The notes under the pieces are model-generated. The model ran no database searches, was not told where the DNA came from, and saw only the letters and a list, made by a program, of their open reading frames with translations. DNA of 47,058 nt from Neophaeotheca triangularis (Eukaryota): assembly GCA_054600435.1 (NCBI GenBank), contig BAAIJX010000015.1, positions 434,001 through 481,058 of the forward strand. Direction: 5' to 3'. Positions 213 to 32,595 of the stretch are shown one piece after another; position 1 is the stretch's first letter, and each line of letters starts with the position of its first letter. The translations under genes and the position numbers were made by a program.

Positions 213-1624
213 GAAGGGGGAGGGGGCGGTTGTAGCGGGTGTGCATAGATTGAGGAGGTAGTCTTGCTTTGCTTGGTGGAATAGCGGGCGAGGCGTTCGG
301 AACACATTGCTTTCAATGTGGCTCTTGCATTTTCCTGAGCTCCTTTGCTTGGTACGCGATACCCTCGTACCTAGCCGCATATGATAACCTGAGAATGAGA
401 ACACAGGATGAGGATGGTATTGCGCGCACTACGAAGGGATTAACGCTTCGACACTGATGACTTCCTAAGCATCACATGAATAGTCTAATCCTCTGTTGAC
501 CGAAGCTAACGACACTACGAGGAGAGATATACCCACTGCTCCGCGTGGGCTAATTGCAGTCAAAAGCCGAAGAGGGGAGTAGCTAGAGATCACTGTAGCA
601 AAAAGTACCACCTTTTCCAAAATCGTCGACTAATCTATCCATAGCATATAGAGTCTTGCTACACAGTCATGGTATGGACTATGGGGGCTGTAAAGGATTT
701 GAAGATACCTGAGTAATATCTAGGACCACATTCACATGATATTCTGACAGACCTGACTATAAGATCATCGACTACAGCGATTTTACGCTGGAACAGTCAC
801 GGCTCTATCACGAAGTAGCTGAGGGTGAGTGAATGTTGCCGGGTGGGAAACTTACCCTAAAGGCAAACCCGACTAACTGACTGACGAAACAATCGCTTTC
901 ATGGCCCGCCCACTCACTACATAAGCAGGCCGCCAACTAACAAAGACAGATGACACCCCTCTAAGCAGCAATCCAAAGAAAGTATACCTCTAAAAAAGCA
1001 ACAATCAGTTATCACCAATGAACGGCTAAATACCTCATGTTAGTAGTAGAAATCATAGCAAGCGTGCTACATAATATATACTTCATAAGCGCCCAGGATA
1101 CATGCCGAGAAGAGAGGCATTATAGTCCACCTACCGTACCCATTACCTCGACGACCATCCCAATCGTAACGATAACGAGTACAAGTCAAAGTATCTTGCC
1201 GTCGGAGATCAAAATGGCTCGGGTGGTGGACTTGGCTTGTAAGTGGATCATGGGCGGGAGCGTTTCTCCTTGAGCTATAATGTAGAGAACACCCCGCTGA
1301 CCTAGTCCTAGAGGTTGTGGTGAGGGGTTTTTCTTCCGTAATGAGCACGCACATGTCGATACTGGCAAGCTTGTTCCATGTCTTTCTTGCTTGCGCTGGA
1401 CTTCGTTGGTGGAAACCTTCAGGAGGGAACGTCTACATCAACAATTACATCGCAGTTCTTTGATCATTGACAATGACTAGACAGATCTGGCCAACCAGCA
1501 AGAAGAAATCTTCACAACGACTATATTTGTTTTGATACTCACGTGACCTTATGCTCGACGGGAAACCACGAGCGAGCTTCACACTCTCGCTTCCGTTCGA
1601 GCCAATCACAACGTCCAAAAGACG

Positions 1625-1721
1625 GGTCAGGTGTCCGAGTGGTTATGGAGCTGCGTTTAGGCCTATCTAAACACTTTTCCGCAGTGGCGTTGCCTCGCGC
1701 GTTCGAATCGCGCCCTGATCA
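1625..1721 (+). tRNA. tRNA-Leu(UAG) with a 17-nt canonical intron (1662-1678)
   Basis: Acceptor GGTCAGG/CCTGATC plus discriminator A; anticodon stem CTGCG/CGCAG with TAG at 1658-1660; long variable arm TGGCGTTGCCTC; T-arm GCGCG-TTCGAAT-CGCGC; intron CTAAAC pairs with GTTTAG; T10 terminator at 1731-1740. Confidence 0.95.
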
Positions 1722-28869: not shown

Positions 28870-30420
28870 ACCACAACCTAGAGTCTCTAGAGTCTACGAA
28901 TAACAATATTAATAACAAATCGAGAATGGTAGGTTGTCGCGGCTAGCGCAATCTTGATCGAATCGCTTCCTGCTTCCTTTCTATCTCACCCCTTTCTCTA
29001 GCCAAAACTCGGGAATCCTCCGTACTCGACGGCAGGGAGTGAACCCAAACCCTAGCCCGTCTTCTCCCTTGAATCGTTACCTTATCACTAATCATACGAC
29101 TATCCCTATTGGAAAAGTAGCTCTCGGTATTCTCTATAAAAATACAGTGTTACCACCTATACTCGGTATGTGCTCTCCTAAAAAAACTCGAACAACTTTG
29201 ATTTCGAGAACCCCTTGGACTTTTGAAAAAGCTCCTAAGGCTTCTAGAAGTTTACCTTCGACACCTCACTTGATAGATTCGAACATCTGAGATCAAAAGC
29301 ATCGCGTCTCGGCGCTACGCTCGCAATTACTGTTCTCCGTTAATATAGAAAACATTCGACGGTACACACGTGCCCGCCTTTTGCGCCCAGCGAATTTAAG
29401 TATTTCAATAATGTTTAGACAGCCGCAGGCCTCCCTCAAATTCTAGGCTGACATCTTGCAGACCTCATAGGCGAGGTGATAAGACTACGTACACCGTATT
29501 AAATTGTCAACTGTGCTCTGAACACCGACGCCACCTTGTAGCAAGCCGCTCAGTGTAGTGAGTAGGTATTGCTCATAGTAGCTCCGCTTCGCTCGGAAAC
29601 ACCCACTATATCGCCAGAGAATGTTGGCCAAAACCTTCCAGCGAGCCGAGTTCAGCTGCTACTAGGAAACACTTCGAGCTCATCCGCTTTCTAGACAGGT
29701 GCGCCACCACTGTAGACGTTGCTGGCCAAAGCAAGACATTCCACCGCTTCCATGCCGATCGTGAAGAGCACTGACGTACTGATAGCTACCGTCGCTGTAC
29801 TCGGCCCTCTCTAGACACAACTGATCATGGAGACTATCGCTATAGAAGAGCAGAGGGAGCTGAGGTTGCCCTCCTAAGTCATAAGCGGAGAACGTTCAAT
29901 CAGGTAGCTGTCGCCGGAGAGAAATGCTACCGGAGAGAAATGCTACCAGAGAGAAATGCCACCGGAATTGGCTCTCGGTCTTCGTGTCTGTCCGCCTTGG
30001 CCCGTCATCTACCTTCAAACAGTATACAGGTAAGCTATAGTACTAGGACCATATCGAACGACGACAAAGATTTCCTAGTCGAAAACTGCCAGCGCTCTAG
30101 CGAGCTCACCGACGGTCAAAGCCGTAGTAGATCTTCTTGCGGTTCATGAATATCGCTTCTCAGATCCCGGGCCGTATTGGTACTAATCGATTCGGCTTTC
30201 ATAGCAGGTGCCGTCGTGCAGTAAGCTGCTAGAAGTGGTTGTCTGGTGAGGTTCTCGTGCCTTTCGTTGGCCCGGGAACGTATACATCGTCGGAGAGTGC
30301 TCTCGAAAGCTCGCTTCGGAATGACTGAACCGGAGTATTGCCTGGGTAGTCATTTGGAAGCATACTACCTAGCTACTCTATAGTTAATAGAGGAATCGAA
30401 TGTATGCATTAACGCGATGT
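28870..30420. other. Degenerate, possibly RIP-mutated relic (TE or gene); identity unknown
   Basis: No long ORF; by eye enriched in TpA/CTAG relative to flanking genes; frames punctuated by TAG stops. RIP indices not computed. Confidence 0.35.
29914..29965 (+). repeat. 16-bp tandem repeat x3
   Basis: CCGGAGAGAAATGCTA / CCGGAGAGAAATGCTA / CCAGAGAGAAATGCCA / CCGG. Confidence 0.9.
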
Positions 30421-30613
30421 ACGCTTCCGTTTCCATACAGGAGTTATAGTCCTCGATTTCCAAGGTTCTTTGTATGATCCGGCTCGTCACGGCGGCAAGG
30501 CGCTGGGCTTGGGCGGTGCTCAATTATCAGCGATATATTTTTTGTCACCAAAGATGAGTCATCAACGAAATCAATCAATGGTTTCAAGTCCGCAGAGGCA
30601 AGGTTTCCTGGTG

Positions 30614-30671
30614 GTTCGTCTCCCCTGACTCTAAGCTCCACTGAAGAATCACTCGCTAACAATCCTAATAG
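30614..30671 (+). other. 58-nt spliceosomal-type (GT-AG) intron in the tRNA-Val D-stem, between tRNA nt 12 and 13
   Basis: 5' GTTCGT; branch site GCTAAC at 30655-30660; 3' TAG; exact removal restores the D-arm and A box. Confidence 0.85.
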
Positions 30672-30697
30672 TAGTTGGTTATCACGTCTGCCTAACA

Positions 30698-30721
30698 TCC
30701 GCTTCTAAGAAGTAATGTGGG
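30698..30721 (+). other. 24-nt canonical tRNA intron (position 37/38) of tRNA-Val
   Basis: Begins one nt 3' of the anticodon; removal restores a 7-nt loop CTAACAC; G at intron -3 can pair with C32. Confidence 0.9.
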
Positions 30722-31183
30722 CGCAGAAGGTCGGCGGTTCGAACCCGCCGGAAATCACGATGATATTTCTTTTTGCCAATTTTGGAGTGCGCTCTGCGAA
30801 TACCCTTTTTGCCTTCCAGCCTTTTTTCTTTTTGCGTTTGATAGAAAAATGGGTCAACCCGAGTAGACGCATACAACGTTTAGCAGCACCAGAGTTAGCC
30901 GCTAGAACTACCTCCTATCAGTAGTACTCTTTGTGATCAAGTCGTAAAGTTGAAACGAATTTGGCGGGGTGTATCGTTGATTCATACTTTGAGAACATCT
31001 TCCATTTCCACAGACCCTCATAACACTTTCATATTCGCCAAACTGAAGCCCACTTCGATTGCCAGACAGCTCATTCGAGCAAACAAATCACCACCGAAGT
31101 ACCTGCGTTCTAGAAAAGACCCGCTCATTCGCCAGCCGTTCGCGTGGAACAATCGCAGTATTCGATACAGCACCACCTCAATC

Positions 31184-32595
31184 ATGGCCTCTACAGCACT
31201 CGATGGAAAGGCAAAAGAGCTCGTCACAAAGTCCTACCCGCAGGCTCAGGAAGAGAGCGGTGATGCTGTGAAGCTCTCGCACGCTGTCTTCCCTAAGGTG
31301 GAGGTGAGCCAAACCATAGCGACAATATCAAAGCAAATGCTCGGGGCTAACAATGATCCCAGTACTCGACCGCAGAAAAGACGGAAATCGAGCAATGGAT
31401 CATCACTTCCTCCCACATCGCTTCGCCCTCCGAGGATGGTGCAAAGACCGCCGAACGCCTCTCCTCCCTCAACACCCACCTGTCCACCCGCACTATGCTG
31501 TTAGGCAACAAGCCTTCAGTCGCAGACATTGCCATGTTCTCGCGCCTCGCGCCCGTCGTCAAAGACTGGACCCCTGAGCAACGAACCGGCGAGCAAGGTT
31601 GCCATCACATCGTCCGGCACCTCGACTTCGTCCAGAACTCCCCAATGTTCGGCCTCAAGCTCTCCTCCGACGAGAAGGTCGCCATTGACCCCTCTCAAGT
31701 CGTCTCCCCAATCAAACCTATTGATGCCAAAGCCGAGAAGGAGCGCAAGAAGAAAGAGAAGGCTCTGGCCGCAGCGGGCGCAGACACAGCAGCAGCATCA
31801 GGAGGCGCCGTCAGCTCCGCAGCCAGCAAGGACACGCAAGAAGCCGAGCAGAACAAGCCCGCAACCGAAAAGGCCAAAGAACTGGGCGAAAAAGTCGCCG
31901 GCGCCGTCGGCGCAGAAACCCCAGGCGTGAGCAAGAAGAAGGAGAAGCAACCCAAGCAGCCCAAACCCCAAAAGAACGCCCCAGCCGCGGACAAACCCCT
32001 TTCCCCCGCCCTCATCGACCTGCGCGTCGGCCACATCCTCAAAGCCGTCCAGCACCCCAACGCCGACAGCTTATACGTCAGCACCATCGCCTGCGGCGAC
32101 GCCCCCGGCACCGACAACACTTCCGAGTACGAGGGCAAGATTGTGCGAACCGTCTGCTCCGGCTTGAACGGGCTGATCCCGCTGGAGCAAATGCAGAACC
32201 GCAAAATCGTCGCCGTCTGCAACCTCAAACCCGTGACCATGCGCGGCATCAAATCCTGCGCCATGGTCCTGGCCGCCTCGCCTCGCCCCGTCCCCGGCGA
32301 AGAAGACAAGCACGCCGGACCAGTCGAGTTGGTGAACCCGCCTGCCGATGCCGAAGCGGGCGAGAGAGTCTTTTTTGAGGGCTGGGAGGGCGAGCCGGAG
32401 GGTGTTCTTAACCCGAAGAAGAAGGTCTGGGAGGATTGCCAGCCGGGTTTCACCACCACGGGGGCTAAGGAGGTGGCTTTTGAGCCGCTGGCTGTGGAGA
32501 AGTTGAAGGAGGGGGAGAAGAAGGAGGTGGCCAAGTTGAGGACGAAGCAGGGTGTTTGTACTGTTAGTACGCTTGAGGGCGCTACTGTGAGGTAG
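31184..32595 (+). CDS. ARC1: tRNA-aminoacylation cofactor (GST-like N-domain + EMAPII-like OB fold), about 450 aa; exons 31184-31303, 31363-32595
   Basis: Intron 31304-31362 (GTGAGC..GCTAAC..CAG); EIEQW..LNTHL..RTMLLG..PSVAD; IDLRVGHILKA..HPNADSLYVS, RTVCSGL, VCNLKPVTMRGIKS.AMVL, LNPKKKVWE. Confidence 0.93.

Follow-up and report, generated by a model that had tools for sequence, protein, structure and literature searches.

Can a nuclear transfer RNA (tRNA) be a substrate of the spliceosome? The question is raised by a tRNA-Val(AAC) gene at positions 30602-30757 (+ strand) of a stretch of 47,058 nucleotides (nt) from Neophaeotheca triangularis (GenBank assembly GCA_054600435.1, contig BAAIJX010000015.1, positions 434,001 to 481,058), all of which was analysed and which is called the window here. 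A sequence-only reading of this DNA had noticed that the D-stem of the tRNA is interrupted by 58 nt that begin with GT and end with AG, and had taken them for a spliceosomal intron. There is a textbook split according to which the spliceosome serves messages made by RNA polymerase (Pol) II, along with U6, a few small nuclear RNAs (snRNAs) and ribosomal RNAs (rRNAs), while tRNAs are served by an endonuclease and a ligase. A natural tRNA in need of the spliceosome would break that split, if true. I consider it probable that the insert is what it was taken for, a genuine U2-type (GT-AG) spliceosomal intron in the nuclear tRNA-Val(AAC) gene of an ascomycete. That the window's pre-tRNA is spliced I infer from the anatomy of the gene, from the signals within the insert and from comparison with similar genes.

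The gene has three exons and two intervening sequences, all read on the + strand. Exon 1 (30602-30613) is 12 nt long and contributes tRNA positions 1-12: the 5' strand of the acceptor stem, positions 8-9 and the first three bases of the D-stem. Exon 2 (30672-30697) supplies the rest of the D-arm, the 5' strand of the anticodon stem and the anticodon AAC through position 37. Exon 3 (30722-30757) supplies the 3' strand of the anticodon stem, the variable loop, the T-arm, the 3' strand of the acceptor stem and the discriminator A. Exons 2 and 3 are separated by a 24-nt intron of the endonuclease/ligase type at the canonical site 37/38 (30698-30721), which lacks GT..AG and whose excision yields Val(AAC). 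Exons 1 and 2 are separated by the 58-nt insert (30614-30671). Every element that had been described in it, and the 12-nt exon before it, was found again in its place: GTTCGT at 30614-30619, GCTAAC at 30655-30660, 11 nt before the end, and TAG at 30669-30671.

It had also been claimed that removal of this GT..AG segment rebuilds the cloverleaf, and so it does. With the 58 nt excised in a script, ARAGORN reports a cloverleaf, and with both intervening sequences out it reports a 74-nt tRNA-Val(AAC), its stems regular and its discriminator an A. When the program is free to decide where the second intron goes, it chooses 34/35 and calls Pro(TGG). That call is rejected, because the anticodon arm of the metagenome homologues described below, which are free of an intron at 37/38, reads Val(AAC); the canonical site fits Val(AAC). 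What a functional tRNA-Val(AAC) gene should have is mostly there: cloverleaf, anticodon AAC, discriminator A, B box and T-run are all present, and the A box is interrupted, so that the integrity of the promoter is partial.

None of this is apparent to programs given the native DNA. ARAGORN, with or without its intron option, reports no tRNA at the locus, and Rfam gives no match at its gathering score in the window and none at E up to 1 on 30400-30900, just as the sequence-only reading had expected of standard tRNA finders. The window contains another gene that is easily missed, a tRNA-Leu(TAG) gene at 1625-1721 (+) with a 17-nt intron at the canonical position and then a run of ten Ts. It is recovered by ARAGORN with the intron option only; ARAGORN in its default mode and Rfam at gathering score pass it by.

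Where exactly does the insert begin and end? Exon 1 and the insert each end in G, which leaves an ambiguity of 1 nt at the boundary, and of the possible registers the GT..AG register alone matches splice signals. In that register the donor GTTCGT has the GT, a G at +5 and a T at +6. The branch motif CTAAC occupies 30656-30660, which puts the branch A30659 12 nt from the 3' end, and the acceptor TAG is the first AG past A30659. There is a tandem acceptor at 30669-30674, where the TAG of the intron abuts the TAG of the exon, 3 bases apart. The second AG, if used, would remove tRNA positions 13-15.

A likeness had been drawn between this insert and the first intron of the ARC1 gene, which lies downstream on the same strand (31304-31362, +; 59 nt). 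That likeness holds on the outside. The lengths are 58 and 59 nt, the spacing from branch to end is the same, and the ARC1 intron is demonstrably spliced: contigs of four runs were compared over 30200-31700, namely X3 (DNA, of a sample other than X1 and X2, the possible sources of the window), X4 (RNA), X5, and X7 (metatranscriptome, from another study), and an X4 contig joins 31301 to 31361, skipping 59 nt with GT..AG ends. It does not extend to the interiors, which are no more alike than shuffled sequence (identity 47.7% versus 47.1% when shuffled; 217 of 500 shuffles reach the observed value), and the notion that the insert is a local copy of the ARC1 intron is rejected. The 9-mer common to the two consists of the branch consensus plus 4 nt, and the 17-nt string that ends the ARC1 intron occurs just once in the window, at 31346-31362. 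An introner-like or other mobile intron family would leave several near-identical copies; in the 47-kb window the insert has no second copy beyond chance matches of 8-10 nt, and the depth of X3 over the interior of the insert is about that of a single haplotype (79, versus about 120 in the flanks). Nothing in the window marks the insert as a repeat or transposon: it has no second copy there, no terminal repeats and a target duplication of at most 1 base. Nor is it a self-splicing intron of group I or II, which would measure hundreds of nt instead of 58 and of which Rfam gives no match.

How often would such a segment turn up by chance? Of the 2,913,876 segments of 45-75 nt in the window, 14 combine GTNNGT, CTRAY at 6-25 nt from the end and YAG, a fraction of 4.8e-6 that includes some real introns of messenger RNA (mRNA). 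The tRNA itself provides a separate measure. When 29,152 GT..AG segments, from the window and from the seven metagenome loci described below (L001-L007), were removed one at a time, ARAGORN found a tRNA across the junction only at the window locus, in three neighbouring registers, and at L003. Removal of CA..TC, TG..GA or AC..CT segments never rebuilt the window's Val gene as judged by ARAGORN. Since ARAGORN will accept boundaries that are slightly off, which the control matches at L003 demonstrate, the exact boundaries rest on the canonical tRNA sequence and on a joined DNA form of the gene that is taken up later.

If the insert is an intron, then tRNA genes split in like manner might be expected elsewhere, and the sequence-only reading had called for such a search. 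Contigs of metagenomes from the Joint Genome Institute were scanned for the letters of the tRNA exons with any 40-70 nt between them, neither GT nor AG being demanded. The scan returned seven loci, all seven of them split genes of the tRNA-Val(AAC) type, and by their flanks four are distinct: L001 (with L002, L004 and L007), L003, L005 and L006. In each, a first intron of 52-55 nt follows position 15. It begins GTTAGT or GTCAGT, has CTAAC or CTAAT 9-13 nt from its end, and ends TAG. The scan pattern caught introns at 15/16 because exon and intron both end in TAG. Loci of the L001 type and L005 have a second intron, 54-55 nt long, in the anticodon stem at 28/29, which begins GTATGT, has CTAAC or TTAAC 9-12 nt from its end, and ends CAG. 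From L003 the anticodon-stem intron is precisely absent. A control with a looser pattern on 596 billion bases of prokaryote genomes gave 17 matches, none of the 17 with a GT..AG insert, and no recognisable 3' part of a tRNA was present in the 80 nt downstream of any of them.

The products and the introns of these loci have fared quite differently. Two of the seven, L006 and L007, run past the ends of their contigs and are excluded from the comparison of products. In the other five, where the gene is complete and which represent three distinct loci, the spliced products are one identical 74-nt tRNA-Val(AAC). The identity between first introns is 57% for L001 and L005, 58% for L001 and either L003 or L006, 67% for L005 and either L003 or L006, and 91% for L003 and L006, where random or shuffled 55-mers give 48-49% with a standard deviation of about 4. 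The leaders of the loci are 51-63% identical. Conserved exons and splice signals around a variable interior had been predicted for related loci, and that is what is seen here, the interiors being 57-67% identical between the more distant ones. Identical exons, kept signals and diverged interiors together imply that the exons and signals are under selection and that at least the more diverged interiors are drifting, a pattern that reads as the signature of introns that a functional RNA sheds. Pol III would stop at four or more Ts in a row, and no such run exists in any distinct tRNA intron analysed. (Among candidate mRNA introns of the window, 9 of 48 have one, but the list is noisy and the comparison is given no weight.) The alleles at L001, L002, L004 and L007 vary at 0 of 74 exon sites, 2 of 107 intron sites and 7 of 1156 flanking sites, too few for a test of selection.

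The acceptor, anticodon and T stems differ between the window tRNA and the tRNA of the metagenome loci, by changes that are compensated; the two are functional orthologues of different lineages. A gene neighbouring the window locus and one neighbouring L005 both belong to Atlas clusters that are commonest in Ascomycota, a weak indication. The introns are not in the same place, being at 12/13 in the window and at 15/16 in the metagenomes. These sites are three bases apart, and the sole distinction between the arrangements is whether the TAG of the exon comes before or after the intron. The difference could be due to the sliding of an intron or to independent insertion.

I propose that spliceosomal introns are a recurrent and heritable feature of fungal nuclear tRNA-Val(AAC) genes, present at no fewer than three sites (12/13, 15/16 and 28/29) and in two or more lineages of ascomycetes. 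Dependence on the spliceosome would follow for some tRNAs, and that of the window would need the tRNA endonuclease besides. The locus in the window would be a live polymorphism of presence and absence, the outcome of a very recent gain or a precise loss, and such genes would be invisible to tools of the tRNAscan type and perhaps systematically missing from catalogues of fungal tRNAs. This whole proposal strikes me as somewhat likelier to be right than wrong. To judge by their sequences, the metagenome loci speak for spliceosomal introns of fungal tRNA genes as a real class, and some fungal tRNAs probably need the mRNA-splicing machinery to mature. Introns at 28/29 or in the D-arm are not at the site cut by the eukaryotic endonuclease, and for that reason are counted in favour of the spliceosome.

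Some other features of the metagenome loci deserve mention in their own right. L001 bears an inverted 3' part of a tRNA-Val, from about position 37 to the discriminator, at 1413-1451 (-) and then a short T-run; this half of a tRNA precedes the intron-bearing gene by about 50 nt and points away from it. The spliced tRNA of L001-L005 has A in place of T54 (T-loop ATCGAGC), which puts its B box off consensus. TATA-like elements precede L003, L005 and L006 by about 30-37 nt. L005 has a hexanucleotide repeat at about 1125-1250, translated as successive HVE triplets close to the C-terminal end of a ubiquitin-hydrolase gene, and that gene, on the same strand as the split tRNA gene, ends about 240 nt upstream of it.

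Is the insert truly in the DNA of the organism, and is it there always? That it has support beyond the assembly of the window, which the earlier reading had asked for, is clear from two contigs. Record 4 of X3, a different sample, covers 30584-30700 at a depth of 60.7 with the insert present and with substitutions at 30624 (C>T) and 30663 (T>A). A 180-nt contig of X7 covers 30567-30743 without gaps and retains both introns; of its four changes the two that could be placed are 30624 C>T and 30699 C>G. None of the placed variants of X3 and X7 falls inside GTTCGT, GCTAAC or TAG, and 2-3 are known in the window intron. 

X3 also holds a second form of the gene. A contig with a depth of 53.8 joins 30612 to 30671, skipping 58 nt, with GT..AG ends if the cut is moved one place to the right and with 29 letters on the shorter side. 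The link is marked 'between: not known', is absent from the listed pieces and is not phased with the flanking haplotypes. X3 behaves as DNA, with even depth and with the ARC1 intron still in place, and so the joined form exists as DNA. Record 4 extends 30 nt to either side of the bases in which the two forms differ, and its ends would thus match the two branches of a bubble in a 31-mer graph. If so, the geometry of the bubble requires the insert-free form to have no fewer than 18 nt of the locus-specific leader in common with the window gene, as well as the bases that open the 37/38 intron, which points to an allele or orthologue of the window gene, not a paralogue. An insert-free contig with the same leader means that among close relatives the intron is present or absent with exact boundaries. 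The flanks in X3 come as two haplotypes at roughly equal depth (records 2 and 3; records 5 and 6), and the sample is diploid, hybrid, a heterokaryon or a mixture. The haplotypes have, for example, 4 versus 18 differences over 30408-30579, part of a two-haplotype region within 30200-30905, and a single contig covers ARC1.

This counterpart makes one alternative serious. The window gene may be a freshly disabled copy. In that case one of several Val(AAC) copies recently took up 58 nt, possibly of mRNA-intron origin, and became a young pseudogene, spliced poorly or not at all in the context of Pol III. It is the main rival, and I regard it as possible though unlikely. The insert-free form in X3, which shares the leader, lacks exactly the 58 nt and has nearly the depth of the other, is what one would expect of it. 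It had been argued that the intact stems suggest function. The stems are indeed intact, but for the window copy the argument is weak in view of that contig from a related sample, because with an insert-free counterpart the intron may be too young for decay of the exons to show.

Several further considerations tell against the spliceosomal reading of the window insert, and most of them suit a disabled copy. The donor has T and C at +3 and +4, where a purine and A are usual, and is weak-looking; the few high-confidence mRNA introns of the window begin GTAAGT, GTAAGC or GTGAGC. (These come from a catalogue made by joining open reading frames, a heuristic and noisy procedure that gave 48 candidates, many of them false, and only ARC1 and a few cases with long reading frames were used.) The insert splits the region of the A box, so transcription from upstream of exon 1 is not guaranteed. 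The depth of X3 over the T-arm exon is 651, about five times the single-copy value of about 120, and a several-fold depth on this shared exon means that other Val copies exist in X3. Together with the insert-free contig this marks the window copy as recent or expendable, and it could be a gene disabled not long ago. Changes within the exons of the window lineage are uninformative, there being none among the placed X3 and X7 changes (7 more are unplaced) when about 2 would be expected. Since the window intron is at 12/13 and those of the metagenomes at 15/16, the comparative support is by analogy and not by orthology. Finally, neither the window's tRNA-Val gene nor the metagenome loci yielded a spliced junction in RNA: the sole contig at the locus from an RNA library, that of X7, is unspliced, mature tRNAs being unexpected in such libraries, and it could be DNA carry-over. 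The claim of a spliceosomal intron thus stands in part, with strong comparative support from the GT..AG introns of metagenome tRNA-Val(AAC) genes and with no spliced junction or lariat seen.

What makes the spliceosomal reading the better one is that a random or degenerate insertion would very rarely bring the three signals together in exactly the register needed for restoring the tRNA (the fraction of 4.8e-6 given above), that the placed variants of X3 and X7 spare those signals, and that at least four distinct loci elsewhere keep comparable introns, with exons identical where complete and interiors diverged, which is compatible with long-term function.

Might the tRNA-like sequence lie within a Pol II transcript, for example a non-coding RNA upstream of ARC1, which is spliced in the ordinary way and from which the tRNA is released secondarily or never? 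I think this very unlikely, and what can be said for it comes from the surroundings of the gene. The tRNA gene precedes ARC1 by 430 nt, and the two share a strand. The X7 contig takes in 35 nt or more ahead of the mature 5' end, a long leader by the standards of Pol III (the 5' leader it covers is 30567-30601, +). A T-rich, TATA-like element is discernible in the sequence at 30534-30543 (+), some 60-68 nt upstream of the mature 5' end and about 25-30 nt upstream of the start of that contig (~30564-30567). The element might conceivably be an upstream promoter element for Pol III, a weak suggestion; as a general feature of Pol III genes, a TATA near -30 has no comparable element at the window's tRNA-Leu gene, and for this reason it is given little weight. 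The X7 contig is that run's only cover in the 1.5 kb compared. It modestly favours a primary transcript over DNA carry-over, contigs being unable to show starts.

The signals at the gene itself speak for Pol III instead. A perfect B-box-like sequence, GGTTCGAACC, occupies 30736-30745 (+) in the T-arm of exon 3, and a terminator-like run of five Ts occupies 30770-30774 (+), 13 nt past the 3' end of the tRNA. Together they would fit Pol III. T-runs are found also downstream of those metagenome homologues whose 3' end is in the contig, and the tRNA introns analysed are free of the long T-runs that would stop that polymerase. X4 has no contig on the tRNA locus, X5 covers 30997-31184 only, and the ARC1 RNA contigs of X4 begin at 31032, short of the tRNA. 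Adapter-like loose letters stand ahead of that start, about 150 nt upstream of the ATG, and the ARC1 mRNA may start at about 31032.

A third possibility is that the insert is cut by the tRNA-splicing endonuclease or another endonuclease at a fold resembling a bulge-helix-bulge. This I rate as highly improbable, even though Cyanidioschyzon merolae is documented, in the part of PMC3728597 available to me, as having ectopic and multiple tRNA introns that the endonuclease cuts. The first intron of the metagenome loci can be drawn with a central helix of 4 base pairs, mostly G-U, but the lenient rule used lets 440 of 2000 random segments do as well. The window intron manages 3 of 4 central and 1 of 3 outer pairs, which does not surpass random segments, and the anticodon-stem introns 3 of 4 with 0-1 flanking pairs. 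This is weak evidence against such a fold, the rule being lenient and the positive control, the 37/38 intron, itself reaching only 3 of 4. GT..AG, GTNNGT and a branch motif are present in all the introns, and an endonuclease has no need of them.

As for an artefact of assembly or sequencing, with the insert absent from the organism's DNA, the joined X3 form could in principle hint at one and nothing else does; it can be set aside, because X3, with substitutions of its own, and X7, from another study, carry the insert, and both forms occur in X3 at about equal depth beside two flank haplotypes.

If the insert is a spliceosomal intron, the tRNA would mature as follows. Pol III, engaged through the intact B box and stopping at the T-run, would make a precursor of about 200 nt. 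The precursor would be unable to fold into a tRNA because its D-stem is split after position 12. The spliceosome would recognise GTTCGT, the branch A30659 and the first AG downstream, joining position 12 to 13, and the 58 nt would leave as a lariat branched at A30659. Only then could the body of the tRNA fold, allowing RNase P and RNase Z to trim its ends, and the tRNA-splicing endonuclease and ligase would excise the 24-nt intron at 37/38 last. One RNA of 74 nt would thus require both splicing machineries.

This model, if true, ties the supply of a tRNA to the activity of the spliceosome. It also offers the spliceosome a second Pol III substrate, unrelated to the first, on which its work without Pol II coupling or a cap can be studied. 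The insert-free counterpart in a close relative is a rare case of an intron gain or loss that can be dated and whose boundaries are exact, and so is material for models of gain and loss through reverse splicing and reverse transcriptase. Since ARAGORN and Rfam are blind to such genes, counts of fungal tRNA genes and estimates of codon adaptation may be biased.

How does all this compare with what is known? No published report of natural spliceosomal introns in nuclear tRNA genes was found in the literature outside subscription journals. An engineered case is said to exist: Kohrer, Vogel and Domdey (EMBO J, 1990) reportedly placed an actin intron in a yeast tRNA gene and saw it spliced by the pre-mRNA pathway. 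It would demonstrate in principle that the spliceosome can act on a Pol III pre-tRNA. That construct was artificial, and the tRNA introns considered here are natural and heritable.

The nearest natural relatives are the mRNA-type introns of other non-coding RNA genes. Spliceosomal introns are listed in the genes for U6, U2, U5 and U1 snRNA and for rRNA, with tRNA unlisted, in the available part of PMC5855946. The hosts named there are U6 of fission yeast and other fungi, the U2, U5 and U1 snRNAs of Rhodotorula hasegawae, and ascomycete rRNA genes, and U6 is a Pol III transcript that can be a substrate of the spliceosome. Like the window insert, these introns have GT..AG and branch signals and sit in conserved, structured, non-coding RNAs instead of Pol II messages. 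Like the tRNA introns generally, so far as that source describes them, they are patchy and lineage-specific, and their sequences are unconserved save for the splice signals. The differences are that the host here is a tRNA and that the window gene has an endonuclease-type intron as well. The argument from closeness to the active site is inapplicable, because a tRNA is not part of the spliceosome. What is new is the presence in tRNA of mRNA-type introns known from other non-coding RNA genes.

With canonical tRNA introns at 37/38, removed by SEN/TSEN and ligase, the insert shares its location in a nuclear tRNA gene and the need for its removal before the tRNA can function, and the window gene has one of each. 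In the part available of one tRNA review from 2023 (PMC10275265) the spliceosome is set against the tRNA endonuclease, and TSEN54 is likened to a ruler placed on the mature domain. Introns at 12/13, 15/16 and 28/29 differ from the canonical ones in their sites and in their GT..AG and branch signals, and they disrupt the very domain from which TSEN54 measures. The programs reflect the same division, in that tRNAscan-SE 2.0 handles non-canonical introns for archaea only, according to the accessible portion of PMC8450103. Closest in position are the ectopic tRNA introns of C. merolae, of nucleomorphs and of archaea, which, as far as the available parts of PMC3728597 and PMC3978253 describe them, also occupy non-canonical sites, the D-arm included, and occur more than one to a gene. 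Those introns make use of a bulge-helix-bulge and an endonuclease. The ones described here have no convincing bulge-helix-bulge, and their signals are those of the spliceosome.

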